Shown piece after piece: positions 872 through 24,761 of a stretch of DNA of 36,683 nucleotides; the stretch's first letter is position 1, and each line of letters opens with the position of its first letter. Below the pieces are notes generated by a model. The model did no database searches. It saw only the letters and a program-made list of their open reading frames with translations, and was not told where the DNA came from. The position numbers were made by a program, and so were the translations under genes. The stretch comes from Stellaceae bacterium (GTDB lineage: Bacteria > Pseudomonadota > Alphaproteobacteria > ATCC43930 > CGMCC-115725), in NCBI GenBank assembly GCA_035569735.1, contig DATMMM010000443.1:1-36683 (forward strand). Direction: 5' to 3'.

Positions 872-1228
872 ATGAGTGGCGTTAAGCTGATCGCTCCGGA
901 ACAGCGCAAGTTCGAGCAGATCGGCGGCGACGCCGGTGACATCCGGATTGGACGCGACGTCGCCGGCGACATCAGCAAGACCTTCGGTGCGGGAATAGCC
1001 GTCTTCGAGAACTGCTCCATGGAGTGGACGGTGCTCTATGACGAATATTTCTATTGCCTCGAAGGCACTCTCACCATCCGGACCAGGGAGGGCACGTTCG
1101 TTATGCGGCCGGGCTACGGACTGTGGCTGCCGAAAGGCACCTGGCTCGTCTATGAGGCCAAGGAGCGCGCCAAGGTCGTCTTCTCCATCTACCCCGTCGA
1201 TTGGCGCGAGCGCCAGTCGCAAACCTGA
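872..1228 (+). CDS. Cupin-domain protein, EutQ/cupin_3-like (no His-rich metal motif)
   Basis: ATG at 872 is preceded by GGGAGG (859-864). Beta-barrel signature WTVLYDEYFYCLEGTLTI...GYGLWLPKGTWLVY. The track ORF starting at 719 is an over-extension into Arg/Gly-rich non-coding-like sequence. Confidence 0.7.
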   Translation: MSGVKLIAPEQRKFEQIGGDAGDIRIGRDVAGDISKTFGAGIAVFENCSMEWTVLYDEYFYCLEGTLTIRTREGTFVMRPGYGLWLPKGTWLVYEAKERAKVVFSIYPVDWRERQSQT

Positions 1229-1239
1229 GAGGTGCTGCC

Positions 1240-2520
1240 GTGAGGAGTTCATCGCGCTCGGATTTGCCGGGCACGGCCGCCAAGGATGTGTCCGCCGTTG
1301 CGCACAAGACCCCGGTCGTCGCCATCACCGACACGGCAGCGACTCTCGATATGGCGCGCTTGCGCGGCTACCGCTTGGCCCGGCTCCGCGAGCAGCTCAA
1401 GAAGCACGATTGTGCGGGGTGCCTGCTGATCGACCCCATCAACATTCGCTATGCCACCGGCAGCCGGAACTACGGCATGTTCCAGTCGCATACGCCCGGC
1501 CGGTACCTTTTCGTGGCGGCGGAAGGACCGGTCGTGCTGTTCGACGCCGTGGCATGCCATGAGGTCGCGCGCGGTCTCGAGACGATCACCGAGCTGCGCC
1601 CGGCCGTCCCCTTCAGCTTTTTCTTCAGCGGGCCGCGGCTGGCCGAGAGCATCGAGGGCTGGGCCGCGGAGCTCGCCTCGCTCTCCCGCGGGTCGGCGGG
1701 GGGCAATAAGCGCCTTGCGGTCGATCGCTGCGATGTGATGTGCGCTTCGGCGCTGACCCGCCACGGACTGGAGCTCGTGGATGCCCAAGGTCCGGTCGAG
1801 CGCGCTCGCTCGATAAAATCCGCCGAAGAGATTCTCTGCATGAATTACTCGCTCGCGGTCGCGGATATCGCGATGGCGCGCATGCGCGAGGCGCTCAAGC
1901 CCGGCCTCACGGAAAACGAGCTCTTTGCGATCCTCTACCACACCAACATCGCGATGGGCGGAGAGTGGATCGACGCGCGCATGCTCACGTCGGGCGATCG
2001 CACGAATCCCTGGCTGCAGGAAAGCAGCGAGCGCCGGATTCGTCCGGGCGAGCTGGTGGCGTTCGACGCCGACATGGTCGGCCCCTTCGGCTATTGCTCG
2101 GACGTCTCGCGCACGTTCTTCTGCGGCCCGGGCCGGCCGTCCGACGCCCAGCGGCACCTCTACAAGCTCGCCTACGAGGAAATCCAGCACAACATGGCGC
2201 TGGTCAAAGCAGGCGTCGGATTCAGGGAGCTCGCCGAGAAGGCTTACCGACAGGCGGACGAATATGTGCCGAACCGCTACATGCTGCTCGCCCACGGCAT
2301 CGGCCTTTGCGACGAATATCCGTCCATCTACTATCGGCAGGATGTCGACAAATACGGCTTCGACGGCGTCCTCGAGGAGAACATGACGATCTGCATCGAA
2401 AGCTACGTCGGCGCGGTGGGCGGCAGGGAAGGAGTCAAGCTCGAGCATCAGGTCCTCGTGACCGCGAAAGGCTGCGAGCTGCTCTCGAAATTTCCATTCG
2501 AGGACGAGCTGCTGCGCTGA
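1240..2520 (+). CDS. M24 (creatinase/prolidase fold) metalloenzyme, DddP-like (DMSP-lyase family) rather than a canonical Xaa-Pro peptidase
   Basis: GTG at 1240 lies 7 nt after GAGAGG and 11 nt after the cupin stop. The pita-bread-fold C-terminal half carries ligand pattern D-x-D-x9-D (codons 2065, 2071, 2101), His +64 (2293), Asp +6 (2311), Glu +29 (2398) and Glu +15 (2443). This spacing matches my recollection of DddP ligands D295/D297/D307/H371/D377/E406/E421. It differs from the canonical M24B D-x10-D spacing. The start could be TTG 1201. Confidence 0.7.
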   Translation: MRSSSRSDLPGTAAKDVSAVAHKTPVVAITDTAATLDMARLRGYRLARLREQLKKHDCAGCLLIDPINIRYATGSRNYGMFQSHTPGRYLFVAAEGPVVLFDAVACHEVARGLETITELRPAVPFSFFFSGPRLAESIEGWAAELASLSRGSAGGNKRLAVDRCDVMCASALTRHGLELVDAQGPVERARSIKSAEEILCMNYSLAVADIAMARMREALKPGLTENELFAILYHTNIAMGGEWIDARMLTSGDRTNPWLQESSERRIRPGELVAFDADMVGPFGYCSDVSRTFFCGPGRPSDAQRHLYKLAYEEIQHNMALVKAGVGFRELAEKAYRQADEYVPNRYMLLAHGIGLCDEYPSIYYRQDVDKYGFDGVLEENMTICIESYVGAVGGREGVKLEHQVLVTAKGCELLSKFPFEDELLR

Positions 2521-2555
2521 TTGTCGCCGGCGAGAGCAACGAGGAGGGACTGGGA

Positions 2556-3686
2556 GTGGCGCGCGAATGTGATTTTCTCATCGTCGGCAGCGGCATAGCG
2601 GGCGCTTCCGCGGCTTATCACTTGGCGGACCGCGGCTCGGTGCTGCTGTTGGAGCGAGAGAGCCAACCCGGATATCATTCGACCGGCCGCTCGGCCGCCG
2701 TCTTCGCCGAGAGCTATGGGCCCCGCCTCATGCGAGCCGTGACGGTCGCGAGCGGTCCGTTCCTGCGCAATCCGCCGGAGGGCTTCTCGGACGTGCCGCT
2801 CATGCACCCCCGCGGCGCCCTCTTCATCGCGCGGCAAGACCAGCGAACGCTCCTCGAGGAGCTCGTCAAGGAGCTCAGCGAGCTTTCGGACGATCTCCAG
2901 CTCATCGGAGCCGAGGAGGCCTTGACGCTTTGCCCCGTGCTAAAGCGCGACTACGTCGCGCTGGCCGCGCGGGATCCGACGGTGATGGATATGGATGTGA
3001 ACGCCATCCATCAAGGCTACCTGCGCGGCGCGCGGAGCAAAGGCGCGGAGGTCGTCACCAACGCCGAAGTGACCGCGCTCGAGCGCCACGGCGGGGTTTG
3101 GCAAAGCAGAACCAAGGCGGGAGATTTCCGGGCGCCCATCGTGATCAACGCCGCCGGCGCCTGGGCGGATGTCGTCGCCGGGCTGGCGGGAGCCCGCAAG
3201 ATCGGGCTGCAGCCGAAGCGCCGAACGGTGATCGTCTTCGATGCGCCTGCCCGAACGGAAATGAGCCGGTTCCCGATCGCGGCCGATTGCAGCGAGCAGT
3301 TCTACTTCAAGCCGGAGTCGGGCCGGGTGCTCGCCTCGCCCGCCGACGAGACGCCGGTCGAGCCGCAGGACGTACAGCCGGAGGAATTGGACGTGGCCCT
3401 GGTCGTGGACCGCGTCGAGCGCGCGTCCACCCTCAAGGTCGAACGGATCTTCCGGCGTTGGGCCGGGCTCAGGAGCTTCGTCGCCGATAAGAATCCGGTG
3501 GTGGGCTTCGCGCCCGACGCCCCGGGTTTCTTCTGGCTCGCCGGACAAGGCGGCTACGGAATTCAAACCTCCTACGCCATGGGTCTGACGGCGGCCTCGC
3601 TCGCGACGGGCAAGGGCCTGCCCGAGTCGGTCAAGAAATTCGGCCTGAGTGAAACCGATCTCGGACCCGCGAGGCTATGGCGCTAG
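2556..3686 (+). CDS. FAD-dependent oxidoreductase, DAO family (sarcosine/glycine/D-amino-acid oxidase-like)
   Basis: GTG at 2556 follows GAGGAGGG (2541-2548). N-terminal dinucleotide fold CDFLIVGSGIAGASAAYHL...LLLERE. C-terminal GQGGYGIQ. The 648-aa track ORF from 1740 is an out-of-frame overlap of the previous gene. Confidence 0.8.
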   Translation: MARECDFLIVGSGIAGASAAYHLADRGSVLLLERESQPGYHSTGRSAAVFAESYGPRLMRAVTVASGPFLRNPPEGFSDVPLMHPRGALFIARQDQRTLLEELVKELSELSDDLQLIGAEEALTLCPVLKRDYVALAARDPTVMDMDVNAIHQGYLRGARSKGAEVVTNAEVTALERHGGVWQSRTKAGDFRAPIVINAAGAWADVVAGLAGARKIGLQPKRRTVIVFDAPARTEMSRFPIAADCSEQFYFKPESGRVLASPADETPVEPQDVQPEELDVALVVDRVERASTLKVERIFRRWAGLRSFVADKNPVVGFAPDAPGFFWLAGQGGYGIQTSYAMGLTAASLATGKGLPESVKKFGLSETDLGPARLWR

Positions 3687-3774
3687 CCCATCGTCCGCGC
3701 TGTCGCGCGATGCGCCCTGTCGAAGTGCGAGTTACATTTCGCACTCACTTCCCCTCCGGTGAAGTGAAAGCGCC

Positions 3775-5493
3775 ATGGCCTATGATTATGTGATTGTCGG
3801 CGGTGGCTCCGCCGGCTGCGTCCTCGCCAATCGCCTATCTGCCGATCCCCGCGCGAGCGTCGTGCTGCTGGAAGCGGGTGTGGACACTCTCCCCGAGCAC
3901 ATCTCGGACGAGATCTACACCTTGCCCTTCTTGCCGCATTATTTCCAGGACGACTACTACTGGACCGACATCCAGGCCTATATGGATCCCATCGGCAACC
4001 GGGCTCCTTCGGAGATTGCAGCGCTCATGCGGCCGCGGCGCTACGAGCAGGCGCGGGTCATGGGCGGCGGCTCCACGGTGAACGGCCAGATCGCGATCCG
4101 GGGCCTGCCATCCGATTACGACGAGTGGGAGGCGCTGGGCGCCACCGGCTGGTCTTTTCGGGATTGCCTGCCTTTTCTGCGCAAGCTCGAGCGCGATCTC
4201 GATTTCGACGGACCCTATCACGGCAAGGACGGGCCGATCCCGATCCATCGCACGTTTCCCGATAATTGGGGCGGACTGTCTCTCGCGTTCCGAAAGACCT
4301 TCGCCAAGAAGGGCATCCCCTATTTCGACGATTGCCATGCCGAGTTCGGCGACGGCTGCTTCCCGTTTCCCAAGAACAACGTCTACGGCCATCGCGTCTC
4401 CGCCGCCTTGGCCTATCTCGATGGCGCGACGCGGCAGCGCAAGAACCTGCGGATCCTGCCGAAGAGCCTGGTCGAGCGCATCGAGTTCGATGGAAAGCGC
4501 GCCGTCGCCGTGCAGGTCTCGCGGGGCGGCAAGCGCGAGCGGATCGAGGGGCGCGAGATCATCGTCTCCAGCGGCGCGCTCCATTCCCCGGCACTCCTCA
4601 TGCGCTCCGGCATTGGTCCGCAGGCGCATCTGCGCGAGCACGGGATCGCCGTAGTCGCGGACCGCCAGGGCGTCGGGTCGAATTTGCAAGAGCATCCCTT
4701 GGTCGGCATCGGTCTCCACATCAAGCCCGAGGGGCGGCTGCCGGCCAGCCTGCGCAACAATTTCCTGCTCTGCATGCGCTTCAGCTCGCATTATCCCGAT
4801 TGCCCGCCACAGGACATGAAGCTCTCTGTCTCGAACCGCTTCGCCTGGACCAAGGTCGGGTTTCAGCTGGGCACCATCCAGTTCGGACCCAACAAGGCCT
4901 TCTCGCGCGGCTTCGTGCGATTGCAAGGCAAGGATCCGCGCCAGGAGCCGCTGATCGCGTTCAACCTGCTGTCGGATCCGCGCGATCTCCAGCGCACCGT
5001 CGATGCGGTGCGCTTCGTCCATGAGGTGCTCAACACCTCGCCCGCCAAAGACATGATCTATTTTGCCTTCCCGGGCATTTACGCGGAGATGCAGCGCAAT
5101 CTGACCACCCAGTCGCGGCGCAACAAACTCCTGAGCGATGCCGCGGCCTGGCTCCTCGACCTCGGCGGTCCCGCGCGCGATTTCGTCATGCGCAACTTCA
5201 TCGTCACGGCGAAACACGGACTGGACGAGGTCGTGCGCGACGAGCGATTGTTGGTGGAATGGATACGCCTCGGCGTGCAAGGCGATTGGCACGCCTGCGG
5301 CACCTGCAAGATGGGCGCGCCCACGGACCCAATGGCGGTGGTCGGGCCCGATGCGCGGGTGGTCGGCGTCGAGAATTTGCGCGTTGCCGACGCCTCGATC
5401 ATGCCGACGGTACCCTGCGCCAATACGAACATCTCCACCATCATGATCGGCGAGAAGGTGGCGGACGCGATCCTGCGCGACCGCCAGGCTTGA
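3775..5493 (+). CDS. GMC-family flavoprotein oxidoreductase (choline/alcohol dehydrogenase-like)
   Basis: N-terminal YDYVIVGGGSAGCVLANRLS...VLLLEAG. GMC signature GGGSTVNG. C-terminal active-site region WHACGTCKMG and ADASIMP. Confidence 0.9.
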   Translation: MAYDYVIVGGGSAGCVLANRLSADPRASVVLLEAGVDTLPEHISDEIYTLPFLPHYFQDDYYWTDIQAYMDPIGNRAPSEIAALMRPRRYEQARVMGGGSTVNGQIAIRGLPSDYDEWEALGATGWSFRDCLPFLRKLERDLDFDGPYHGKDGPIPIHRTFPDNWGGLSLAFRKTFAKKGIPYFDDCHAEFGDGCFPFPKNNVYGHRVSAALAYLDGATRQRKNLRILPKSLVERIEFDGKRAVAVQVSRGGKRERIEGREIIVSSGALHSPALLMRSGIGPQAHLREHGIAVVADRQGVGSNLQEHPLVGIGLHIKPEGRLPASLRNNFLLCMRFSSHYPDCPPQDMKLSVSNRFAWTKVGFQLGTIQFGPNKAFSRGFVRLQGKDPRQEPLIAFNLLSDPRDLQRTVDAVRFVHEVLNTSPAKDMIYFAFPGIYAEMQRNLTTQSRRNKLLSDAAAWLLDLGGPARDFVMRNFIVTAKHGLDEVVRDERLLVEWIRLGVQGDWHACGTCKMGAPTDPMAVVGPDARVVGVENLRVADASIMPTVPCANTNISTIMIGEKVADAILRDRQA

Positions 5494-5503
5494 GGAAATC
5501 CGG

Positions 5504-6763
5504 ATGAATGAGACAAAAAAGCGGGCCGTCACCGTCATCGGTGCCGGCATCGTCGGCACCGTCTGCGCCAACTACCTCCTGCGCGACGGCCATAATGTGA
5601 CCCTGGTCGACCGTCTGGGACCGGGCGAGGCGACGTCGTTCGGCAATACCGGTGGCATCAGCCCGGCCTCGGTGGTCCCGATCGCCTACCCCGGAATGGC
5701 CAGGGACATTCCGAAATGGCTGCTCGATCCCAATGGGCCACTCTATCTCCATTGGTCCTACCTGCCGCAGGTCTTGCCGTGGCTCATCAAGTTCCTGCGC
5801 GCGGGACGGCGCGACCGCGTGGAGCGCATCTCGAAGGCGCTGGCGAGCCTCAACATGCCGACCTTCGAGGCCTATCGCCCGTTGCTCAAGGACGCGGGGC
5901 TAGAGCATCTTTTTCACCAGACCGGGCAGCTCTTCGTCTATCGAAGCAAAGAGGGGCTCGCGCACGATCAGTTCGGCATCGACCTGAAACGCGCGACCGG
6001 ACTGCGCGTCGATATTCTCAATGCCGACGAGATCCGCCAGCTCGAGCCGTCGCTGGCGCCGATCTTCTCCGCGGCTCACTTCATCAGCGATCACGGCCAT
6101 TGCAAGAATCCGTTCGGGTTGGTGCAGGGCCTCGCGGAGAATTTCGTGCGCCGGGGCGGCACTTTGCTGCGCGACGAGGTCCTGGGCTTCGAAATGGGCC
6201 CAGTGGGCCCGAGCGCGATCCTGACCTGCGGCGGCCGGCACGCTCTCGACCTCACCGTGATAGCGGCCGGCGTCTGGTCGAACGCGCTCACGAAACAGCT
6301 CGGCTATGACGTGCCGATCGAGACCCATCGCGGCTACCATGTGACCCTGCCCGATCCCGGCGTGATGCCGCGGATCATGGTCCTGCCGATGGACTACAAG
6401 ATCGCGATCACGCCCATGGAGATGGGGCTCCGATTGGCCGGCACGGTCGAGCTCGCCGCCATCGACGCGCCGCCTAATTACGCGCGCGCTCGAAACCTGC
6501 TGCGCATCGGCCGCGAGATTTTTCCGAGCCTCAATACCGAGGGCTACACCCATTGGATGGGCAACCGCCCGTGTTTCCCGGACAGCCTTCCGGTTCTGGG
6601 CGCGGTGCCGGGCGTGCCCAAGACCTACGTGGCGTTCGGTCACGGTCATCAAGGGCTGCTCGGCGCCTCACAGACCGGCAAGGTCATGGCCGAGCTCATC
6701 GGTGGCCGACCGCTGTCCATGGATTTGACGCCGTTCCGCATCGACCGCTTCTCGCGCGCATAG
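5504..6763 (+). CDS. FAD-dependent oxidoreductase, D-amino-acid dehydrogenase (DadA)-like
   Basis: ATG lies 10 nt after the GMC stop; GAGGA overlaps that stop. VTVIGAGIVGTVCANYLLRDGHNVTLVDR Rossmann motif. 419 aa, DadA-like length and layout (GHGHQG near the C-terminus). Confidence 0.8.
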   Translation: MNETKKRAVTVIGAGIVGTVCANYLLRDGHNVTLVDRLGPGEATSFGNTGGISPASVVPIAYPGMARDIPKWLLDPNGPLYLHWSYLPQVLPWLIKFLRAGRRDRVERISKALASLNMPTFEAYRPLLKDAGLEHLFHQTGQLFVYRSKEGLAHDQFGIDLKRATGLRVDILNADEIRQLEPSLAPIFSAAHFISDHGHCKNPFGLVQGLAENFVRRGGTLLRDEVLGFEMGPVGPSAILTCGGRHALDLTVIAAGVWSNALTKQLGYDVPIETHRGYHVTLPDPGVMPRIMVLPMDYKIAITPMEMGLRLAGTVELAAIDAPPNYARARNLLRIGREIFPSLNTEGYTHWMGNRPCFPDSLPVLGAVPGVPKTYVAFGHGHQGLLGASQTGKVMAELIGGRPLSMDLTPFRIDRFSRA

Positions 6764-6878
6764 CGCCACGACCTGCCGGGTCGCGGCTTGACGATCGACA
6801 GCCAGAGGCCATAGCTTTTTTTCAGATATCGGTTCGCCATTCCGGAAATCGGTACGCAATGAGATCGGGGGCTCGATC

Positions 6879-8924
6879 ATGCGCGACCCGCGCTTCGATA
6901 TTCTGTTCGAGCCCGTTCGGATCGGTCCGGTCGTCGCCAAGAACCGCTTCTACCAGCCGCCACACTGCAACGGCATGGGAAGTTGGCGCCCGCAGGCTCA
7001 CGCGGCCATGCGCGGGGTCAAGGCCGAGGGCGGCTGGGCTGTGGTCAATTCCGAGCATTGCTCGATCCATCCGACCTCGGACGTGGTCCCGGAGGTGCTG
7101 CACGCGCTCTGGGACGACGCGGACATCCCCAATCTCGCGCTCATGTGCGAGGCGGTTCACGCCCATGGCGCGCTCGCCGGGGTCCAGCTCGCCTACGCCG
7201 CCTACTACAACTCGAACCGCTACAGCCGCGAGGTGCCGATGGGGCCGGTGGCGCGGCCGGTCGACAGCTATTACCCCGTCCAGGTGCGCCAGATGGACAA
7301 GGCCGACATCCGCAACCTCAGGCGCTGGTGGGGCGATGCGGCGCGGCGAGCGCGCAAGGCTGGGTTCGACATCGTCAACGTCGATGCGAATTTCTCGACC
7401 GCCGCCTTTCAGTTCCTCTCGCCGCGCAATACGCGGACCGACGAATACGGCGGCTCGCTCGAGAACCGTGTCCGCCTCCTGCGCGAGCTTATCGAGGTGA
7501 CCCAGGAGGCGGTGCAGGGCGCCTGCGCGGTCAGCGTCCGCGTGATCATCGACGAGATGTGCGGCCCGCGCGGGCTCCAGGCGCACCAGGACGGGATCGC
7601 CGCGGTCGCGCTCCTGGGCGACCTGCCGGATCTCTGGGACATCGTGGTCGGCACCTGGGCCGACGATTCTCCGACCTCGCGCTTCGCGCCCGAGAATGCC
7701 CACGAGCCGTTCCTCAAGGGCATCAAGGCCGTGACCAAGCGGCCCGTGGTGGGGGTTGGGCGCTTCACCTCGCCCGACACCATGGCCTCGCTGGTCCGCC
7801 GCGGCATCCTCGACATGATCGGTGCCACCCGACCATCGATCGCCGATCCCTTCCTGCCCAAGAAGATCGAGGAGGGGCGGGAGGACGATATCCGCGAGTG
7901 CATCGGGTGTAACATCTGCGCCTCCAGCCATTTCCAGATGACGAACCTGCGCTGCACCCAGAACCCCACGATGGGCGAGGAATGGCGCAAGGGATGGCAT
8001 CCCGAGCGCGTTCCGCCGAAAGCGTCGGAGGATTCGGTGCTGATCGTGGGCGCGGGACCGGCCGGGCTCGAATGCGCGCGGGCCCTGGGCCAGCGCGGCT
8101 ATCGCGTCACGCTCGCCGAGCGCGGCAAGCAGCTCGGCGGCCGCGTCACCCACGAGGCGGGCCTGCCGGGTCTGCGCGAATGGCTTCGCGTGCGCGACTG
8201 GCGCGTGGGTCAGCTCCGCAAGCTCCTCAATGTCGAAATCTATAGGGAGAGCGATGTCACGCCCGAGACGGTGCTCGAGCTCGGCCCGAGCCACGTCGTG
8301 CTCGCCACCGGCGCTCGCTGGCGCGCCGACGGGGTCGGCCGCGCGACGCACCTGCCGGTGCCGGTCGAGGCGGGCGTGGCCGTCTTCACGCCGGACGATG
8401 TCATGGACGGGCGGACGATTCCCGGGCCGGTCTTGGTGCTCGACGACGATCATTATTATATGGGCAGCCTGGTCGCCGAGACGCTGGCGCGGGCAGGTGC
8501 CGCCGTCACGCTGGTCACCCCTGCGCCCGAAGTCGCCGCCTTCACGGAATCGACGCTCGAGCTTCGCCGCATCGCGCAACGTCTGGACGCGCTCAAGGTG
8601 CGCATGGTCACGCATCATATGCTGGCTCGCGCCGGCGCGGGCGAGGCGCAGCTTCTGCACGTTCACACGAACCGGTCGATGGGCCTTGCGGCCTCCGCGA
8701 TCGTCATGGTAACCGCCCGTTTGCCGGAGGACCGGCTCTATCGCGCGCTGGAGGCGATGCCGGACCGGCTTGCCGATGCCGGCATCAAATCGGTGACGCG
8801 CATCGGCGATTGCTTGGCACCCGGGGCGATCTTTCACGCGGTCTATGCCGGCCATCGCTACGCGCGGGAATTCGATGCGCCGCCGGTTGAGATCGCCTTC
8901 CAGCGCGAGCGGATTGTGCTTTGA
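6879..8924 (+). CDS. Trimethylamine/dimethylamine/histamine dehydrogenase-family iron-sulfur flavoprotein (OYE-like FMN barrel + 4Fe-4S + ADP-binding domains)
   Basis: N-terminus RDPRFDILFEPVRIGPVVAKNRFYQPPHC has Cys at codon 30 (6966-6968), the position of the 6-S-cysteinyl-FMN link in TMADH. RTDEYGGSLENR is present. Cys cluster CIGCNICx11C (7899-7955) is followed by TQNPTMGEEWRKGWHPE, then VLIVGAGPAGLE. 681 aa. Confidence 0.85.
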   Translation: MRDPRFDILFEPVRIGPVVAKNRFYQPPHCNGMGSWRPQAHAAMRGVKAEGGWAVVNSEHCSIHPTSDVVPEVLHALWDDADIPNLALMCEAVHAHGALAGVQLAYAAYYNSNRYSREVPMGPVARPVDSYYPVQVRQMDKADIRNLRRWWGDAARRARKAGFDIVNVDANFSTAAFQFLSPRNTRTDEYGGSLENRVRLLRELIEVTQEAVQGACAVSVRVIIDEMCGPRGLQAHQDGIAAVALLGDLPDLWDIVVGTWADDSPTSRFAPENAHEPFLKGIKAVTKRPVVGVGRFTSPDTMASLVRRGILDMIGATRPSIADPFLPKKIEEGREDDIRECIGCNICASSHFQMTNLRCTQNPTMGEEWRKGWHPERVPPKASEDSVLIVGAGPAGLECARALGQRGYRVTLAERGKQLGGRVTHEAGLPGLREWLRVRDWRVGQLRKLLNVEIYRESDVTPETVLELGPSHVVLATGARWRADGVGRATHLPVPVEAGVAVFTPDDVMDGRTIPGPVLVLDDDHYYMGSLVAETLARAGAAVTLVTPAPEVAAFTESTLELRRIAQRLDALKVRMVTHHMLARAGAGEAQLLHVHTNRSMGLAASAIVMVTARLPEDRLYRALEAMPDRLADAGIKSVTRIGDCLAPGAIFHAVYAGHRYAREFDAPPVEIAFQRERIVL

Positions 8925-8948
8925 CCGATAGGAGTAGGCGAAGGGATC

Positions 8949-9725
8949 ATGGACAAATTCATCATTTTCGAGAAGCGGGCTGAGATTGCGGTCATCACGT
9001 TCAATCGCCCATCGATCCTCAATGCTTGGCATACGCCCATGCGCCTCGAGATCACCGAGCGGCTCAAAGAGTGCAACGCCGATCCGGCCGTGCGCGCCGT
9101 CATCATGACCGGCGCGGGCGACCGGGGCTTCTGCGCCGGGCAGGATCTGAACGAGACGAAGCAGCTGCAGGGCGGCGAGGGCGGCGTCGCCTGGGCCGCC
9201 AGCTGGCCGCCGTTCTACGATGCGCTCCGCGGGATGGAAAAGCCGGTGGTCGCCGCGCTGAACGGCGTCGCCGCCGGCTCCGCCTTCCAATGGGCGATGA
9301 TGTGCGACGTTCGCGTCGGCCACAAAGGCGTGACCATGGGACAGCCCGAGATCAACGCCGGGATCGCCTCGACGCTGGGCCCGTGGCTCATGGTCGAGCG
9401 CATCGGCTGGTCGTGGATGGTCGAGCTCACCCTTTCCGGCCGGATGATGGACGCGGCGGAGTGTCACCATATCGGCCTCATCCATTACCTCGTGCCGCAA
9501 AACGAGGTCATGGCGAAATCCATCGAGGTGGCGGCGCACCTGGCCTCCAAGCCGCCGATCGCGATGAAGCTCAACAAACAGCACTTCCGCACGCTCTCCG
9601 AGCCCGCTTATCGGCTCGGTGTCGAGGAGGGTCGGCGCATCCAGCGCGAGGCCTATGCGAGCGGCGAGCCTCAGCTGTGGATGGAGAAGTTCTTCGCGGA
9701 GCGCGAGCGCCGCAAGCGGAAGTGA
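8949..9725 (+). CDS. Enoyl-CoA hydratase/isomerase (crotonase) family protein
   Basis: RBS GAAGGGA. ITFNRP...NAW...VIMTGAGDRGFCAGQDL oxyanion-hole region and KPVVAALNGVAAG. 258 aa. Confidence 0.85.
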   Translation: MDKFIIFEKRAEIAVITFNRPSILNAWHTPMRLEITERLKECNADPAVRAVIMTGAGDRGFCAGQDLNETKQLQGGEGGVAWAASWPPFYDALRGMEKPVVAALNGVAAGSAFQWAMMCDVRVGHKGVTMGQPEINAGIASTLGPWLMVERIGWSWMVELTLSGRMMDAAECHHIGLIHYLVPQNEVMAKSIEVAAHLASKPPIAMKLNKQHFRTLSEPAYRLGVEEGRRIQREAYASGEPQLWMEKFFAERERRKRK

Positions 9726-9771
9726 TCGGGTACATCCTCGGCCACGGCGTGCTATCGGCGGATTTTGCGGA

Positions 9772-11358
9772 ATGAGCCACAGCGAAGCTCCTGCGTTTCC
9801 CTGGGGAGCCGACGACGCGTCCGCGGGGACTTTGCTCACCCGTTTCGCACGGGACCACGGCGACCACGTCTATTGCCGGTTCGGCGCCCACTCTTCTTCC
9901 GTGCGCGAGATCGAGACGGCGGCGAACCGCGTCGCCCACGGGCTCGCGCGCCGCGACATCCTCGCCGGCGACCGGGTCGGCGTGATGCTGGATCACCATC
10001 CGGACCACGTCATCGTCTTCTTCGCGCTCGCCAAGCTCGGCGCCGTGATGGTGCCGCTCAACGTCCATCTGCGCGGCGCGAGCCTCGAGCATTTGCTGCG
10101 CGACGGCGACCTCGCGAGCCTGATCGTCGAAGCACGCTTCGCCGAAACGGTGCAGCCGATATTGCAAACGACGCCGGTCGGACGCGTGATCTGGCGGGAG
10201 AACCCGGCGGGGTCGGAAACTGACGATTTCGCCGCGCTTCTAGCGGATCCGGAGTCGGCGCCGCCCCGTCACGAGGTCGCACCCGACGACATCGCCGTGA
10301 TTCTCTATACGTCGGGCACAACAGGCCTTCCCAAGGGCGTGTTGCTCACCGACCGCATGGTGAGGGTCGCGGCCTGCGCGTCGGGACGCGTCGCGGAGGC
10401 GAGGGACGGCGACGTCTTCCTGATGTGGGAGCCCATCAATCACATCGGCGGCATGGAGGTGCTGGTCTTGGCGGCGCAACGCCGGATCACGCTCGTGATG
10501 GTCGAGCGCTTCAGCGTGTCGCGATTCTGGCCCGAGGTTCGGGAGCATGGCATCACGCACCTGCATTTCCTCGGCGGGGTGCTGGCGCTCCTCCTGAAGG
10601 CCGAGCCGCGGCCCGAGGACCGCGACCACGGGATTCGCGTGGCCTGGGGCGGCGGCTGTCCGCTCTCGATCTGGCGCGCGTTCGAGGAGCGCTTTGGCAT
10701 CCCCATCCGCGAGGGCTATGGCATGACCGAGTGCGCGAGTTTTTCCGCGCAGAACCTTACCGGCAAGCTTGGATCGATTGGCGCCTGTCTTCCCTATCTC
10801 GAAATGCGCGTGGTCGACGAGCGCGGGCAACCGCTGGGGCCCGGCAAACGGGGCGAGATCTGGATTCGCGGAAAGCTGCCAGGCATCATCACGCCCGGTT
10901 ATTGGCGCAATCCGGAGGCGACGGCTGCGCTGTTCGAGGGCGAATGGCTCAGGACCGGCGACATCGGCTGGCATGACGAGGACGGCGACTTCTATTACAG
11001 CGGCCGCAAGAAGGACAGCGTCCGGCGCCGCGGCGAGAATGTCGCGGCCTTCGAGGTGGAGCGCGTGCTGAACGAGCACCCCGCCATCGCGGAAAGCGCC
11101 ATGGTCGGGGTCCCTAACGCCCTTGCCGACGAAGACATCAAGGCGTTCATCCGGCTGAAGCCCGGTGCCACCCTCGACCCGCTCGCGCTCATCCAGTGGT
11201 GCGAAACCCGGATGGCTTATTTCCAGATCCCGCGCTACCTCGCCTTCGTCGACAGCCTTCCCAAGACGCCGAGCGAGCGCATTCGCAAGGACGCGCTGTC
11301 GCGCGGGACCGAGGATAGCTGGGACCTCGAGCGCTCGGGCTACAGTCTCCGGAGATAA
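9772..11358 (+). CDS. AMP-dependent acyl-CoA synthetase/ligase (CaiC/short-chain acyl-CoA ligase-like)
   Basis: ILYTSGTTGLPKGV, GYGMTE, TGDIG and GRKKD adenylate-forming motifs. ATG 9772 was chosen because the upstream part of the track ORF overlaps the crotonase gene out of frame. The RBS is weak, so the start is uncertain. Confidence 0.85.
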   Translation: MSHSEAPAFPWGADDASAGTLLTRFARDHGDHVYCRFGAHSSSVREIETAANRVAHGLARRDILAGDRVGVMLDHHPDHVIVFFALAKLGAVMVPLNVHLRGASLEHLLRDGDLASLIVEARFAETVQPILQTTPVGRVIWRENPAGSETDDFAALLADPESAPPRHEVAPDDIAVILYTSGTTGLPKGVLLTDRMVRVAACASGRVAEARDGDVFLMWEPINHIGGMEVLVLAAQRRITLVMVERFSVSRFWPEVREHGITHLHFLGGVLALLLKAEPRPEDRDHGIRVAWGGGCPLSIWRAFEERFGIPIREGYGMTECASFSAQNLTGKLGSIGACLPYLEMRVVDERGQPLGPGKRGEIWIRGKLPGIITPGYWRNPEATAALFEGEWLRTGDIGWHDEDGDFYYSGRKKDSVRRRGENVAAFEVERVLNEHPAIAESAMVGVPNALADEDIKAFIRLKPGATLDPLALIQWCETRMAYFQIPRYLAFVDSLPKTPSERIRKDALSRGTEDSWDLERSGYSLRR

Positions 11359-11470
11359 TCCTCCCTCGTCCCTTGGACGCGCCCCGTCCCATGCAAAGTC
11401 GAGGACCAATGGCTCGCCTTCTGCTATTGGCTGGACATCACTGGCACGCCGCTATCGAGGAGGTTCGACG

Positions 11471-11977
11471 ATGCGCACGCCCCCATCACGGTTTGCCGGC
11501 GCCGGACTTGCGCTGGCCGTTCTCGGCGGCTGGCTTGCCGGGCCCGCGCGAGGAGAGCTCCTGACGCACCACGATCTCCCCTATGACGTCGCGCTGACCA
11601 TCGCCAAGGGCGCGGTCGAGAGCTGCGCCGCGAAAGGATATCCGGAGTCCGCGGTCGTGGTGGACCGCGACGGCGAGACCATCGTGGCGATCCGCGGCGA
11701 CAACGCCGCGCCTCACACGATGGAAAACGCGCGCCGCAAAGCCTACACGGCGATGAGCTTTCGAACGGCCACGACCGAATACGCCAAGCGCTTCGCCGAC
11801 AACAATCCGGTGGTGCGCCAGCAGGTGACGCTGCCGAACGTCATCGCCATCCCCGGCGGCTTGCCGATCAAGGTCGGCGAAGAGATCGTCGGCGGCGTCG
11901 GCGCATCGGGCTCACCGGGAGTGGACGAGCCCTGCGTCCAAGACGGTCTCGACAAGGTGGCGGACCAGCTCAAGTGA
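11471..11977 (+). CDS. GlcG/HbpS-family (DUF336, heme-binding-like) protein with an N-terminal Sec signal peptide
   Basis: ATG follows GAGGAGG (11458-11464). Signal-like MRTPPSRFAGAGLALAVLGGWLAGPARG. Family core GGLPI...GGVGASG. Confidence 0.7.
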   Translation: MRTPPSRFAGAGLALAVLGGWLAGPARGELLTHHDLPYDVALTIAKGAVESCAAKGYPESAVVVDRDGETIVAIRGDNAAPHTMENARRKAYTAMSFRTATTEYAKRFADNNPVVRQQVTLPNVIAIPGGLPIKVGEEIVGGVGASGSPGVDEPCVQDGLDKVADQLK

Positions 11978-11987
11978 GGCACCGTTC

Positions 11988-12017
11988 TTGCCGACAGGAT
12001 CGGCCACATGGTATTAA
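11988..12017 (+). promoter_or_regulatory. Candidate sigma70-type promoter upstream of the PLP-enzyme/CoA-transferase/LLM sub-cluster
   Basis: TTGCCG (11988-11993), N18, TATTAA (12012-12017), in an unusually AT-rich stretch of the 89-nt spacer. Confidence 0.25.
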
Positions 12018-12066
12018 AATTAGGACGATAAGACGACTGGGCGTGAAGGCGTAGAGCGCGAGCATC

Positions 12067-13569
<1,503 letters not shown>

Positions 13570-13576
13570 GCAAGGG

Positions 13577-14542
13577 ATGGGGAGCGGATTGACCGAAGGA
13601 TATCTCGAGCTCCGGCGAAAGACCGTCGCGCGCGACCGAAGCCTGCGCGAGAAAGTGATGTCGCTCGAGGAGGCGGCGAAGCTCGTCAAGGACGGCGACC
13701 GCGTCGGCATCGGCGGCAGCACGCTCTCCCGCACGCCGATCGCCATGATCTGGGCGCTCATCCGTGCCGGGCGGAAAGGACTCTCCTGCTCGCGCGGCAT
13801 CATGTCGAGCGACGGCGAGCTCCTGCTGGGCTCGGGCGCCAGCGATCACCTGATCACCAGCTGGTTCAGCCAAGGCATCGTCTGGGGCGTCTCGAAGGTC
13901 ATGCGGCTCTACACGGAATCGAAGCGCGCGCGCTTCGAGGAGTGGAGCCACATGGCCATGGGTCTGCGCTTCCGCGCGGGCGCCATGGGCGTGCCGTTCT
14001 TGCCGATGCGCTCGATGATGGGCTCGGATGTGATCGCGCGGCTGCCCGAGGTGCGCCAGATCGATTGTCCCTTCACCGGCGAGAAGCTCGTCCTCGTGCC
14101 CGCGCTCAATCCCGACGTGGCGCTGATCCACGTGCAGCGCTGCGACCCCTATGGCAACGCGCAGATCGACGGCCTGCAATTCATGGACATCGATCTCGCG
14201 ATGGCGGCCAATCGCGTGATCCTGACCACCGAGCGGATCGTCTCCAACTAGCAGATCCGTCGCGCGCCCGACCAGACCAAGATCCCGTTCCTCGCGGTCG
14301 AGGCCGTGGTCGAGGTGCCCTTCGGCTGCGCGCCGCACGAGTGCTACGGCGTCTATGAGCCATTCTTCAAGCACCACGACATGTACGCCGGGCTGATGCG
14401 CAAGGATCCGGCCAAGGGTATCGCCGAGTACCTCGATCGCTATTTCCATGGGCCCAAGAGCTGGACCGAGTATCTCGACCTCATCGGCATGGAGGAGCTG
14501 CTCGATGCCGCGCGGCGCGGGAGGAGCATCTATGACGATTGA
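13577..14542 (+). pseudogene. Family-I (glutaconate-type) CoA-transferase subunit A interrupted by a single in-frame TAG at 14249-14251
   Basis: 224 codons (…DGDRVGIGGS…ALIHVQRCDPYGNAQIDG…TTERIVSN) are followed by TAG. The same frame then continues for 96 codons (QIRRAPDQTKIPFLAVEAVVEVPFGCAPHECYG…). It ends in a TGA that overlaps the B-subunit ATG. There are no frameshifts. Confidence 0.75.
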
Positions 14543-15323
14543 GACCACGAGCAAAGCCCCGGTGCGCAGTCACACGACCAGCGAGCTGCTCGCGGTCATG
14601 GCGAGCCGTCTCTTGAGAGACGGCCAGGTAGTTTTCGCCGGCGTGGGCATCCCGCTGCTGGCGGCGACCTTGGCGCAGCGCCTGCACGGGCCCGGCCTGA
14701 CGATCTTGTTCGAGGGCGGTACGATCGGCGCGTTCGTCGAGCCGGGGAAGCTGCCGCCCTCGACCAACGAGCAGCGCTGCACGCGGCGCGCCAACATGGT
14801 GCTGAGCAGCACCGACGTGCTGCTGCTCCTGCAGCGCGGCTACATCGACATCGGGTTCATGGGCGGCGCGCAGATCGATCAGTTCGGCAATCTCAACAGC
14901 TCTTTCATCGGTGATCCCGACAATCCGACGACGCGGTTGCCCGGAACGGGCGGCGGCAACGATATATCGAGCCTCACCGACATGATTGTCGCCATGAAGC
15001 ACGAGAAGCGGCGCTTCGTGCGCAAGGTCGATTTCATCACCAGTCCGGGATTCGTGCGGGGCGGCACGAGCCGGCGCGACAGCGGGCTGGTCGCCGGCGG
15101 CATGTACCGCGTGGTCACCGATCTCGGCATCATGGGCTTCGACGACGAGAGCCGGCGCATGACAGTGCTGGCGCTGCATTCCGGCGTCACGGTCGAGGAG
15201 ATCCAGGACAACACCGGTTTCGAGCTGCTGGTGGCCGACGATCTCGCCGTCACGGAGCCGCCGAGCGAGCGCGAGCTCTCGGTCCTGCGCCACCTAGACC
15301 CGGACAAACTCTATATCGCCTGA
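14532..15323 (+). CDS. Family-I CoA-transferase subunit B
   Basis: ATG 14532 is preceded by GGGAGGAG and overlaps the A-subunit stop by 11 nt. VFAGVGIPLLAA…ILFEGGTIG is at the catalytic-Glu position of the SENG-type motif. GGAQIDQFGNLN and PGTGGGNDI are also present. Confidence 0.85.
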   Translation: MTIETTSKAPVRSHTTSELLAVMASRLLRDGQVVFAGVGIPLLAATLAQRLHGPGLTILFEGGTIGAFVEPGKLPPSTNEQRCTRRANMVLSSTDVLLLLQRGYIDIGFMGGAQIDQFGNLNSSFIGDPDNPTTRLPGTGGGNDISSLTDMIVAMKHEKRRFVRKVDFITSPGFVRGGTSRRDSGLVAGGMYRVVTDLGIMGFDDESRRMTVLALHSGVTVEEIQDNTGFELLVADDLAVTEPPSERELSVLRHLDPDKLYIA

Positions 15324-15371
15324 CAAGCCGCGGCTGCGCAGGGCGGCCCCGCCGATCCACAGGAAAAAGAC

Positions 15372-16325
15372 ATGACCGGATTCTCGAACACCTTCGGCAT
15401 CGCGATGCGGAATTTCACGGCGTTCCCGCAATTGCCGGACGCGCAGGAGCTGGTCGAGTACGGCGTCCGGATGGAGGCGCTGGGCTTCGACTCTCTCTGG
15501 GTGTGGGACCATATCTTGCTGGGTGTTGAGCCGCATTTCCCGATCATCGATTCACTGTCGTTGCTGACCGCGGTGGGCGCGCGCACGAAGCGCATCAAGC
15601 TCGGCACCGGCGTGCTCATTTTGCCGCTCAGGAACCCGCTGTTGCTCGCCAAGCAGCTCTCGTCGATGGACCAGCTCAGCCAGGGCCGCCTTCTGCTCGG
15701 GGTGGCGTCGGGCTGGTACAAGCGCGAGTTCGATTCGGTCGGCGTGCCTTTCGAGAAGCGCGGCAAGATCATGGACGAGAATCTGACCATCATGACGCGG
15801 CTCTGGACCGAGGATGTCGTCGCCGGCGACTACCCGCCCTACCACATGAAAGCCGCGGTGATGTTTCCGAAGCCCTATCAGCGGCCGCGTCCCCCGATCC
15901 TGATCGGCGGCTACGTCGACCGGGTGTTGAAGCGAGCGGGCGTGGCGGGTGACGGGTGGCTCACGTATTTCTATACGCCCCAGAGCTTCACGAAATCCTG
16001 GAAGAAGGTGTGCGACTTCGCAGCCGAGGCGGGCAAGGACCCGGCGCGCCTGCTCAATGCCAATCAGCTGCCGATCATGGTGGGGCAGTCGCGTGCCGCG
16101 GTCGAGGCGCCGATGATGGAATGGCTCTCCAAGGAGTGGGACTATGCGTCCTGGAGCGAGTCCACCAAGGACTCCGCCATCATGGGCACGGTGGACGACT
16201 GCGTGGCGCAGCTCCAGGCGCATCTCGACGCCGGCGTGCAGAAGCTCATCTTCGTGCCCTATCAGTACCGCCCGGATCAGATCGACGTTATCGCCAAGGA
16301 AATCATTCCGCGCCTCAAGCGCTAG
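15372..16325 (+). CDS. Luciferase-like (LLM class) oxidoreductase, F420-dependent subtype likely (Rv2161c-like pattern)
   Basis: RBS AGGAAAAAG. GFDSLWVWDH, LPLRNPLLLAKQLSSMDQLSQGRLLLGVASGWYKREFDSVGVPFEKRGKIMDENL…LW. 317 aa. The F420 (rather than FMN) assignment is inferred from this motif pattern and from abutting the F420 operon. Confidence 0.75.
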   Translation: MTGFSNTFGIAMRNFTAFPQLPDAQELVEYGVRMEALGFDSLWVWDHILLGVEPHFPIIDSLSLLTAVGARTKRIKLGTGVLILPLRNPLLLAKQLSSMDQLSQGRLLLGVASGWYKREFDSVGVPFEKRGKIMDENLTIMTRLWTEDVVAGDYPPYHMKAAVMFPKPYQRPRPPILIGGYVDRVLKRAGVAGDGWLTYFYTPQSFTKSWKKVCDFAAEAGKDPARLLNANQLPIMVGQSRAAVEAPMMEWLSKEWDYASWSESTKDSAIMGTVDDCVAQLQAHLDAGVQKLIFVPYQYRPDQIDVIAKEIIPRLKR

Positions 16326-18766: not shown

Positions 18767-18777
18767 TCGAGGTTTTC

Positions 18778-19482
18778 CTAATTGGATTCGATCGCCGGGC
18801 GCGCCGGATCGATATAGGCCGCGGGGAGGCGCGCCGTCGCGTTGCACCGGTCGAGATAGGCGTGACTGAGCGTGGCCGAGCCGCAGGCGAGAAATTCCCT
18901 GAGGTCCTCGGGCCGATCGATATCGAGCCCGATGCCGCGAAGCCGCAGGATGCGCGGGGTGACGCCGCGCTCCAGCGCCGCCTCGAGATGGTGGAAGAAG
19001 CTCTGCTTGCCGAACCGGATCGGGATAGCGTCCATGGGCATGAGCGCGACCGCATTCGTTCCCATATCCGCGAGCGCAGGCACCAAAGTGACGGCGGGGC
19101 GGGTTTGGGGCGCAGCCAGGATCTCGCCGATCTCGGTGCTGGTCGCGAGCGGCACGTCGGCGGGAATCGCGAGCATGCCGGCCGCCCCCTCCGCCGCCAG
19201 CTCTTTCGCCGCCAGCATGATGGCCGCGTTCGGTCCGTCGTGGCGGAGGTCCGCGATCACGCGGGCACCGAACGAGTGCGCCGTCGCGGCGAGCGCGGCT
19301 TCGCGCGTGACCACGATCGTGCCGGCAAGCGCGGGGACGCCCGCGAGCGCGGTCAGGACGTCCTCCAGCATGGCCCGCGCCAGACCCTGCCGCTCCTCGG
19401 CGGTCAGAACACCCGCAAGCCGCCGCTTTGCCTGCGCCAGATCCTTCGCAGGGACCACTGCCCAAAGACCGTCACGGGCCAC
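18778..19482 (-). CDS. cofC: F420 biosynthesis guanylyltransferase (2-phospho-L-lactate / phosphoenolpyruvate guanylyltransferase)
   Basis: LWAVVPAKDLAQAKRRLAGVL N-terminus is typical of CofC/FbiD. GTG 19482 has GGAG 7 nt upstream and overlaps the cofD stop by 11 nt. The alternative start GTG 19512 is possible. Confidence 0.75.
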   Translation of the reverse strand: MARDGLWAVVPAKDLAQAKRRLAGVLTAEERQGLARAMLEDVLTALAGVPALAGTIVVTREAALAATAHSFGARVIADLRHDGPNAAIMLAAKELAAEGAAGMLAIPADVPLATSTEIGEILAAPQTRPAVTLVPALADMGTNAVALMPMDAIPIRFGKQSFFHHLEAALERGVTPRILRLRGIGLDIDRPEDLREFLACGSATLSHAYLDRCNATARLPAAYIDPARPAIESN

Positions 19483-20461
19483 GCGGCGTCTCCATCCTAA
19501 GTGGTTTCGCACGGCGATCGAGGCTGGCGCCGAACTCCAGCGCCTCGCGGGCCAATCGCTCGCGGTCTTCCAGCGAGGTCATCAGAATGCGGCTGCTCCT
19601 CGTCGTCAAAGGCAAGCTGGCGGCTTCGGCGTGGTCGGCACCGTCTATCATGATCCCATCGATGAGGCCGTGATAGTGGCTCGCAATCGAGGCCTGGGTC
19701 AGCGGCACACCGAGTTCGGCCATGATCTTCGCGGTGGGTCCTTTGACCGCCTGACCTCCAATTAAAGGCGAGATCCCGAGCGCCGGAGCAGCGCACTCCT
19801 GGAGCGCTTGTCTCAACGCAGGCAAAGCCAGGATCGGGCCCACGCTCAGGTAGGGGTTCGAGGGGCAGATCACCACCAATGCGAGATCGGGCGACCGCAG
19901 CGCCGCCATGACCTGTGCATTGGGCCTCGCCCGCTCGGCACCCTCAAAAATGATTCGGGTGACCGCGGGCTCGCAGCGGCGGGCGACGAAGTAGCGCTGG
20001 AAGGGCATCGTGCCCTCGGACGTCTCCACCAGGGTCCTGACGGGATCGTCGCTCATCGGCAGGAGCGCGGCGTCGATGCCGAGCCGGCGAGCAAAATCGT
20101 CGGTGACGGCCGTCAGGCTGTCGCCGCCGCCGAGCCTGCGCGTCCGCTGGACATGGGTGGCGAGATCGCCGTCGCCGAGCCGGAACCAGGTCTCGCCGCC
20201 GAGCGCCGCCAGTGCCTCCATGAACGTCCAGGTCTCGCCGCGGCGTCCCCAGCCGGTCTCGGGATTGCTGAGCCCGGCAAGGGTGTACATGACGGTGTCG
20301 AGATCGGGCGAAACATGCAGGCCGAGATGCACGAAATCGTCCCCTGTGTTGACGCAGAGGACGAGGTCGTTTGGTGCGAGGACCCGATAGAGTCCCAAGG
20401 CGAGCTTCGCCCCGCCGACGCCGCCGCAGAGGGCAAGCACCTTATGTCCGCGCGTGATCAT
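19472..20461 (-). CDS. cofD: 2-phospho-L-lactate (or EPPG):FO transferase
   Basis: KVLALCGGVGGAKLALGL N-terminus, PSNPYLSVGPIL and SPLIGGQAVKGP are CofD/FbiA hallmarks. The ATG at 20461 forms an ATGA overlap with the cofE stop. Confidence 0.85.
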   Translation of the reverse strand: MITRGHKVLALCGGVGGAKLALGLYRVLAPNDLVLCVNTGDDFVHLGLHVSPDLDTVMYTLAGLSNPETGWGRRGETWTFMEALAALGGETWFRLGDGDLATHVQRTRRLGGGDSLTAVTDDFARRLGIDAALLPMSDDPVRTLVETSEGTMPFQRYFVARRCEPAVTRIIFEGAERARPNAQVMAALRSPDLALVVICPSNPYLSVGPILALPALRQALQECAAPALGISPLIGGQAVKGPTAKIMAELGVPLTQASIASHYHGLIDGIMIDGADHAEAASLPLTTRSSRILMTSLEDRERLAREALEFGASLDRRAKPLRMETPRGP

Positions 20462-21231: not shown

Positions 21232-21277
21232 CCTCTACGCCTCGCTCTGCAGAGCCGATAATGCCGATAAGCCTCGC

Positions 21278-22054: not shown

Positions 22055-22082
22055 CGCGATCTCCTCGTCTCAAGCGCGCCCG

Positions 22083-23964: not shown

Positions 23965-23988
23965 CGTGGAGGGAGGGACAGGCGCACC

Positions 23989-24753: not shown

Positions 24754-24761
24754 CCGGGCAC

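Follow-up and report, generated by a model that had tools for sequence, protein, structure and literature searches.

The window analysed here is a 36,683-nucleotide stretch of contig DATMMM010000443.1 (assembly GCA_035569735.1) from a Stellaceae bacterium, and its subject is a block of thirteen plus-strand genes at 872-16325 (~15.4 kb) separated by intergenic gaps of 0-116 bp. Genes were assigned by Pfam, NCBIfam and PDB sequence searches and by independent gene calls on a second contig, L174. An earlier note on this DNA had read the block as one undescribed pathway in which a relative of the dimethylsulfoniopropionate (DMSP) lyase DddP splits an onium-propionate, acrylate is processed through coenzyme A (CoA) intermediates and the amine leaving group is oxidised in place. 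The enzyme classes it named are all present on the plus strand, at the same coordinates or within a few bases of them, and its gene list holds as far as it goes; it overlooked the cupin, the GlcG-like protein, the pyridoxal-phosphate (PLP) enzyme and an in-frame TAG codon in CoA-transferase subunit A. We divide the block into module A (872-3686; cupin, M24 protein and DauA-like enzyme), module B (3775-11358; GMC oxidoreductase, DadA-like enzyme, amine dehydrogenase, crotonase and ligase) and module C (11471-16325; GlcG-like protein, PLP enzyme, CoA-transferase and LLM oxidoreductase).

872-1228, plus strand: EutQ-like cupin, 118 amino acids, module A (Pfam EutQ, E 1.6e-14; PDB EutQ 4axo/2pyt)
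1240-2520, plus strand: DddP-type M24 binuclear-metal enzyme, 426 amino acids, module A (Pfam Peptidase_M24 and Creatinase_N)
2556-3686, plus strand: DauA-like dehydrogenase for D-amino acids, dependent on flavin adenine dinucleotide (FAD), 376 amino acids, module A (DAO family; PDB 3nyc, 371 bits)
3775-5493, plus strand: GMC flavoprotein oxidoreductase, 572 amino acids, module B (Pfam GMC_oxred_N/C)
5504-6763, plus strand: DadA-like FAD dehydrogenase, 419 amino acids, module B (Pfam DAO)
6879-8924, plus strand: amine dehydrogenase of the trimethylamine dehydrogenase (TMADH)/histamine dehydrogenase family, 681 amino acids, module B (OYE-FMN/Fe-S/ADP domains)
8949-9725, plus strand: crotonase-fold protein, 258 amino acids, module B (Pfam ECH_1)
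9772-11358, plus strand: AMP-forming acyl-CoA ligase, 528 amino acids, module B (Pfam AMP-binding and C-terminal domain)
11471-11977, plus strand: GlcG/HbpS-like protein, module C (Pfam HbpS-like, E 1.3e-27; gene call on L174)
12067-13569, plus strand: fold-type-II PLP enzyme, 500 amino acids, module C (Pfam PALP, 45 bits)
13577-14542, plus strand: family I CoA-transferase subunit A, interrupted by TAG, module C (Pfam CoA_trans)
14532-15323, plus strand: family I CoA-transferase subunit B, 263 amino acids, module C (Pfam CoA_trans)
15372-16325, plus strand: F420-dependent LLM-class oxidoreductase, 317 amino acids, module C (Pfam Bac_luciferase; TIGR03619)
16322-21231, minus strand: convergent F420 biosynthesis genes FbiC, CofD and CofE, context only (Radical_SAM and CofH_C, CofD, F420_ligase)

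A GGGAGG ribosome-binding site lies ahead of the cupin ATG at 872. Pfam domain searches of 872-16325 found no transporter or regulator, bearing out the earlier note on this point. GC content is 63-71 % in the window and slightly lower in the block than in its flanks; no tRNA genes and no Rfam matches were found. We rejected a genomic island or mobile element as the origin of the block, given the lack of tRNA genes, the lack of a transposase or integrase among the annotated open reading frames and a GC content barely below that of the flanks.

The M24 protein and its module A partners

The NCBIfam DddP model (NF043017) matches the M24 protein nearly end to end at 341.7 bits, short of its cut-off of 600, and the next-best M24 model, PepQ, reaches 60 bits, with creatinase and DoeA types lower still. 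The top solved structures are the DddPs 4rzy and 4b28 (E 1e-77), with prolidases following at 1e-17, and BLASTP identity to RlDddP is 34.6 %. In RdDddP the metal ligands are Asp295, Asp297, Asp307, His371, Glu406 and Glu421, and Tyr366 and Asp377 are invariant candidate catalytic residues (PMC4108388). All six ligands are retained in the M24 protein when it is aligned to 4rzy and 4b28 and in a multiple alignment, and Tyr366 and Asp377 are retained both in the protein and in its clade. Alignment to prolidase places Asp377 opposite the prolidase His, the peptidase motif 'IHE' reading 'CDE' in both DddP and the M24 protein. Because these eight RdDddP residues are kept and 'CDE' replaces 'IHE', the active site appears to be of DddP type and not of peptidase type, in agreement with the earlier note, which had called the protein DddP-like and set it apart from creatinase, prolidase and DoeA.

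A search of 1.84 billion cluster representatives (clusters at 50 % identity) returned 323 clusters that match the M24 protein at E <= 1e-30. On the DddP model, scores range from 250 to 530 bits for representatives from across this radiation, those nearest RlDddP reaching only 469-530. A neighbour-joining tree (100 bootstraps; fungal and Oceanimonas DddPs left out) groups RlDddP with P0260 and P0292 at 99 % and separates the clade of the window protein at 95-100 %. Members of this clade are Stellaceae, Bradyrhizobium and Pseudomonas zhanjiangensis relatives, and all carry Phe in place of Trp95. The clade is found among soil Alphaproteobacteria and in a few Gammaproteobacteria. The DddP catalytic residues are kept in most clades of the ~320-cluster radiation and therefore do not discriminate substrate. 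Like RlDddP (4rzy) and RdDddP (4b28), the M24 protein has a two-domain fold of Creatinase_N and pita-bread domains over ~390 alignable residues; unlike them, it has no match to the ~50-residue N-terminal extension, and its host is most likely a soil alphaproteobacterium. By sequence, we take the M24 protein to be a DddP-type, non-peptidase enzyme of a distinct, uncharacterised clade.

We found the cupin-M24-DauA-like triad at 75-84 % identity on four other contigs (L001, L002, L009 and L010), in each case without module B or C genes. The M24 and DauA-like proteins are 83 % identical to those of the window and the cupin 75-84 %, the cupin lies directly 5' of the M24 gene, and the triad stands beside a divergent Liv-type ABC transporter with unrelated genes beyond. 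M24 homologues at 60-89 % identity occupy five further unrelated contexts besides the triad. Those of L005-L008 (84-89 %) are without cupin and DauA-like genes, and those of L003, L004, L175 and L176 (60-75 %) lie among OpuAC/SSF transporters, MR_MLE, PhyH, 2-hydroxyacid dehydrogenases and SDRs. No acrylate-handling genes were found in any of the eight distinct M24 contexts.

Several features of these contexts are recorded here as observations in their own right. On L001 and L009 the Liv-type ABC transporter operon lies on the side equivalent to 208-871 of the window, with an extra substrate-binding protein gene on L009. In the window this interval (~660 bp, between the end of a membrane-protein gene at 1-207 and the cupin) is without a convincing gene or likeness to relatives; no riboswitch or small RNA was matched there by Rfam, and no remnant of the relatives' substrate-binding protein/ABC transporter genes was found 5' of the cupin. 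The 60 % M24 homologue of L004 (Pseudomonas zhanjiangensis; 6941-20957) shares its surroundings with SDRs, a tautomerase and two genes each for OpuAC-type binding proteins, MR_MLE enzymes (enolase superfamily) and HalD-family members. Such a setting resembles betaine catabolism and may point to the substrate class of the M24 clade. Pairs of hydantoinase A/B genes (N-methylhydantoinase/oxoprolinase type), absent from the window block, lie near the M24 triad on L001 (12439-18960) and L009 (15786-20368) and near the amine dehydrogenase module on L172 (12873-16549).

The retention of every reported invariant DddP residue (the six ligands, Tyr366 and Asp377) would suit a divergent but genuine DMSP lyase in a soil bacterium, whose neighbours are irrelevant to its function, as would the reported activity of a fungal DddP with only 32 % identity to RdDddP (PMC4108388), close to the 34.6 % seen here. 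We nevertheless consider this reading unlikely: the protein falls far below the equivalog cut-off (342 versus 600 bits), belongs to a well-supported clade apart from RlDddP, carries Phe at Trp95 together with the whole of that clade, and keeps residues that many clades of the radiation share. Its gene also recurs in the company of the cupin, of a dehydrogenase for D-amino acids and of a Liv-type amino-acid transporter, and not with DMSP or acrylate genes.

The DauA-like enzyme matches D-arginine dehydrogenase (3nyc) over its full length at ~371 bits. It shares with DauA the residues Y53, R222, Y249, R305 and G332, and differs from it in having Ala at E87 and Val at H48. In PaDADH, Tyr53, Arg222, Tyr249, Arg305 and Gly332 hold the alpha-amino-acid moiety and Glu87 binds guanidinium. 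Because the residues that bind the alpha-amino-acid carboxylate are kept, the enzyme would be no simple amine oxidase, and the Ala and Val at the Glu87 and His48 positions make a specificity for D-arginine or D-lysine unlikely. It is predicted to be a dehydrogenase of the D-amino-acid type whose side-chain pocket is non-cationic, and not a small-amine oxidase. The earlier note had counted two amine/amino-acid oxidase-type flavoproteins in the block; DAO family membership stands for both, but the kept carboxylate-binding residues argue against a role for the DauA-like enzyme in oxidising an amine leaving group.

The pairing with an amino-acid dehydrogenase raises a second reading, in which the M24 protein works as a dipeptidase or a creatinase-like amidinohydrolase and, by hydrolysis, releases a D-amino or N-substituted amino acid for the DauA-like enzyme, comparable to the pairing of creatinase with sarcosine oxidase. 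Its M24 fold with a Creatinase_N domain, the consistent company of the dehydrogenase and the Liv-type transporter, and the hydantoinase A/B genes close by on L001 and L009 are consistent with such a role. To be weighed against them are scores of <=60 bits on the peptidase, creatinase and DoeA models versus 342 on the DddP model, the replacement of the 'IHE' His by Asp as in DddP, and the presence of the DddP-specific extra ligand Asp297 (PMC4108388), and we give hydrolysis by a peptidase- or creatinase-like enzyme only a small chance of being correct. Similarly tentative is a third reading, in which the clade would be a new family of carboxylate-directed C-X lyases acting on some zwitterion of land habitats and not on DMSP, with the cupin and DauA-like enzyme processing an amino-acid-like product and modules B and C perhaps recruited in this strain alone. 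Candidate substrates include S-methylmethionine, betaines of the beta-alanine or amino-acid type, and N-(carboxyethyl) amino acids. We hold this third reading to be possible but doubtful.

The amine dehydrogenase and the other enzymes of modules B and C

The 681-residue product of 6879-8924 scores 734 bits against histamine dehydrogenase 6de6 and 723 against 3k30, 634 against 6l6j, 564 against TMADH and 118 against FadH. FadH/2,4-dienoyl-CoA reductase or a mycofactocin-type Old Yellow Enzyme, which comes first in NCBIfam, was rejected on the strength of these PDB scores (560-730 bits for histamine dehydrogenase/TMADH versus 118 for FadH). Like 6de6, 3k30 and 1djn, the protein has the full-length three-domain architecture, and alignment to 1djn shows that Cys30, the four 4Fe-4S cysteines (CxxCxxC...C) and the equivalents of Trp264/267 and Asp267/270 are kept. 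Cys30 carries the covalent 6-S-cysteinyl flavin mononucleotide (FMN) in the TMADH family. The earlier note's placement of the enzyme in this family stands.

The substrate site, in contrast to that of TMADH, is remodelled. The trimethylammonium cation is bound in TMADH by an aromatic bowl of Tyr60, Trp264 and Trp355, of which Trp264 alone is kept. His occupies the position of TMADH Tyr60 (histamine dehydrogenase Gln65) and that of Trp355/Asp358, where Trp355 itself aligns to a gap beside the His, and the YVYGAH motif (TMADH Tyr169/His172) reads NVDANFS. In histamine dehydrogenase the proposed histamine-binding residues are Gln65, Ile74, Phe77, Glu79, Asn115, Tyr181, Trp267 and Asp358 (PMC10180351), and at these eight positions the window enzyme reads His, Val, Glu, Leu, Tyr, Ser, Trp and His, keeping only Trp267 and departing at Phe77 (Glu), Glu79 (Leu) and Asn115 (Tyr) among others. 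The loss of Tyr60 and Trp355 and the replacement of the Tyr and His of YGAH count against the proposal that this enzyme oxidises a released amine in situ.

Among the 120 closest homologues (P0121-P0240), from Mesorhizobium, Rhizobium, Dongia, Paracoccus and others, nearly all of those that the motif search matched share the remodelled signatures, as NVD[AGS]NFS with His at both the Tyr60 and Trp355 positions. JGI annotations label this subfamily 'dimethylamine/trimethylamine dehydrogenase'. In more distant members (L012, L013 and L016) an aldehyde dehydrogenase gene and a class-III aminotransferase gene flank it, and a BKACE enzyme is often encoded nearby; an amine dehydrogenase would suit this context, but one specific for trimethylamine would not. 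We conclude from residues and gene context that this is a large alphaproteobacterial subfamily of the TMADH family, predicted to act on a substrate other than those of its trimethylamine- and histamine-type relatives.

Module B, like module A, recurs by itself. L173 (amine dehydrogenase 94 % identical) has the order GMC, 419-residue DAO, amine dehydrogenase, crotonase and ligase, followed by unrelated genes. L172 (89 %) has the module B order, with the amine dehydrogenase, crotonase and ligase genes separated by IclR, hydantoinase A/B, OCD and DAO genes, and with NUDIX, amidohydrolase, LLM, SDR and ABC genes upstream of GMC in place of module A; in both contigs GMC lies upstream of the amine dehydrogenase with the 419-residue DAO gene between. 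L171 (90 %) has the amine dehydrogenase without any module B partner. No M24 gene was seen beside amine dehydrogenase homologues at 89-94 % identity. Among 80 genomes with 54-73 % homologues (search of 185 k species genomes), none held syntenic genes of the block, and their other matches were scattered 25-57 % hits to common families. Ligase relatives at 77-90 % identity keep a crotonase upstream, the two genes being adjacent on L093, L094 and L173, and a GlcG-like gene follows the ligase on the short contig L091 at 97 % identity. Metagenome contigs around the ligase held only three arrangements: crotonase-ligase, amine dehydrogenase...crotonase...ligase, and ligase-GlcG.

The remaining module B enzymes belong to broad families. 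The best PDB match of the GMC oxidoreductase is 5-hydroxymethylfurfural (HMF) oxidase (377 bits), and choline-dehydrogenase models score under their cut-offs. The DadA-like enzyme reaches 213 bits on the NCBIfam D-amino-acid dehydrogenase subfamily model (cut-off 383), and the ligase reaches 445 bits on PRK06155 (cut-off 722) and 289 on the CaiC type (cut-off 651). The crotonase reads GSAFQWAMMCD...GQPEI and, when aligned to the Glu144/Glu164 motif of rat enoyl-CoA hydratase, has Gln at the first catalytic Glu (the Glu144 position) and keeps the second (Glu164). A single-Glu pattern is typical of crotonase-fold enzymes other than hydratases. This protein is probably no simple hydratase, and the absence of one of the two catalytic glutamates counts against the suggestion that it hydrates acrylyl-CoA.

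In module C, the GlcG/HbpS-like protein begins with a hydrophobic, signal-peptide-like stretch (AGAGLALAVLGGWLAG), which suggests export, an odd property for a putative member of a cytoplasmic CoA-dependent operon. The PLP enzyme is a distant relative of cysteine synthases (NCBIfam cysK 74 bits versus a cut-off of 351; PDB cysteine synthases <=67 bits). CoA-transferase subunit A carries an in-frame TAG at 14249-14251 beyond which a conserved-looking frame continues. At the same codon L174 has GAG (Glu) and an intact 321-residue subunit A is called there, and the TAG would thus be a true nonsense allele of the strain or else a mistake in base calling; pyrrolysine insertion or programmed read-through was rejected on account of the GAG of this 99.88 % identical contig. 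The subunit B ATG overlaps the subunit A stop (ATGA), and subunit B matches pcaJ/scoB weakly (47 bits).

The LLM oxidoreductase scores 196 bits on TIGR03619, above its 167-bit cut-off, and closes the block beside convergent FbiC, CofD and CofE genes, as the earlier note had described. The F420 set spans 16322-25400 (fused FbiC, CofD, CofE and a nitroreductase-family gene at 24762-25400) and adjoins 5-oxoprolinase PxpABC genes and a GntR gene. A CofC fragment on L174 (18781-18927) belongs to the same alphaproteobacterial F420 set. Beyond the F420 genes the window holds 5-oxoprolinase genes, a GntR regulator, a nitroreductase, an SDR, a xanthine-dehydrogenase-type enzyme and a Lon protease.

One pathway or three modules

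Acrylate catabolism offers a direct comparison. AcuN (acryloyl-CoA transferase) and AcuK (hydratase) turn acrylate into 3-hydroxypropionate, later steps fall to DddA and DddC, and AcuI detoxifies acryloyl-CoA (PMC3338564, PMC13104084); the Halomonas acrylate cluster also holds a transporter and two regulators (PMC13104084). The earlier note's parallel with acuN, acuK and dddA is sound as far as the route itself is concerned. Set beside the Halomonas/Alcaligenes cluster (acuN, acuK, dddA, dddC, acuI, dddT and regulators), the block resembles it in that a gene of DMSP-lyase type has, close by and all on one strand, genes for a CoA-transferase, a crotonase-fold protein and a flavoprotein of an alcohol-oxidising class. 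The block differs in its one-Glu crotonase and its truncated CoA-transferase, in the absence of a BCCT/betaine transporter and a LysR/TetR regulator, and in the lack of linkage of these genes to the M24 gene in relatives. Pfam searches of 872-16325 found no AcuI-type reductase, no DddC-type or other aldehyde dehydrogenase and no MDR domain, and neither the eight M24 contexts nor the more than 80 amine dehydrogenase contexts showed linkage of a lyase gene to acrylate genes.

These comparisons bear on the reading of the whole block as a single pathway, in which the M24 protein beta-eliminates an onium-propionate (DMSP or beta-alanine betaine), the resulting acrylate passes through the ligase or CoA-transferase, the crotonase and the GMC enzyme, and the amine is oxidised by the TMADH-family and DAO enzymes. 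The full DddP catalytic constellation of the M24 protein, the formal parallel of the enzyme classes to the AcuN/AcuK/DddA/DddC route (PMC3338564, PMC13104084), the tight spacing of the genes on one strand and the intact thirteen-gene order on L174 are what one would expect of it. Several features of the enzymes count against it, however: the amine dehydrogenase is without TMADH Tyr60, Trp355 and the YGAH Tyr/His, the DauA-like enzyme keeps its alpha-amino-acid carboxylate-binding residues, the crotonase is without its first catalytic Glu, and the TAG interrupts the frame of CoA-transferase subunit A in this strain. The AcuI-type reductase, aldehyde dehydrogenase, betaine-type transporter and regulator that the Halomonas cluster contains (PMC13104084) are all absent, and none of the eight M24 contexts includes acrylate-handling genes. 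The gene neighbourhood, whose lack of conservation the earlier note itself had named as a refutation, is not conserved: modules A and B lie apart in the closest relatives. An integrated pathway of onium-propionate lysis, acrylate use and trimethylamine oxidation is not supported, and we regard it as very improbable.

The block consists of at least three modules, of which A and B are distributed independently. Its full thirteen-gene order was found on L174 only, which is 99.88 % identical to the window (22 SNPs, single-nucleotide polymorphisms, over 18.9 kb). These SNPs are uneven, with three at 3-base spacing in the ligase (11040-11046) and five within 31 bp near the fbiC 3' end (16655-16685), clusters that are local micro-diversity or recombination patches. 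Genes for acyl-CoA ligases, crotonases, DAO enzymes, LLM enzymes, SDRs and amidohydrolases are scattered through every related locus inspected, so co-occurrence of such genes within 15 kb is not in itself unusual.

We therefore favour, as the probable explanation, a lineage-specific juxtaposition of three separately inherited amine/amino-acid catabolic modules; that they do not cooperate, as well as the substrates and reaction order that follow, is what we infer. Module A would degrade an imported amino-acid-derived zwitterion: the M24 enzyme would hold the substrate carboxylate at its metal pair and break a C-X bond via the DddP-type Asp/Tyr pair, by elimination or hydrolysis, and the DauA-like enzyme would next convert a D-alpha-amino-acid-like product to a 2-oxo acid. 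Module B may oxidatively remove the amino group of a carboxylate-bearing amine, with the product handled as a CoA thioester. Several points weigh against separate modules. The 13 genes share a strand and follow one another closely, and a simple scan found no convincing internal terminator in the block, so that co-transcription is possible. The sample of M24 clade contexts is small (eight distinct contexts), and recurrence of module C was seen only via L091 and L174. New pathways are also often built from existing modules, and separate distribution elsewhere is no proof of functional independence here.

Metagenome studies count DddP genes as markers for the production of dimethyl sulfide. Many DddP-type M24 clusters, including a soil clade with every published 'invariant' residue, score below the curated DddP threshold and lie in amino-acid-type gene contexts, and residue conservation alone therefore cannot call DMSP lyases. 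Two families at this locus are of interest in their own right: the DddP-type M24 clade, whose genes keep company with those of a cupin and a D-amino-acid dehydrogenase, and the large subfamily of the TMADH family in which the active site is remodelled. The latter, named 'dimethylamine/trimethylamine dehydrogenase' by JGI without trimethylamine-binding residues, matters for annotation of the methylamine cycle. If one such M24 clade proved to act on another zwitterion, the range of reactions known for the M24 fold would grow.

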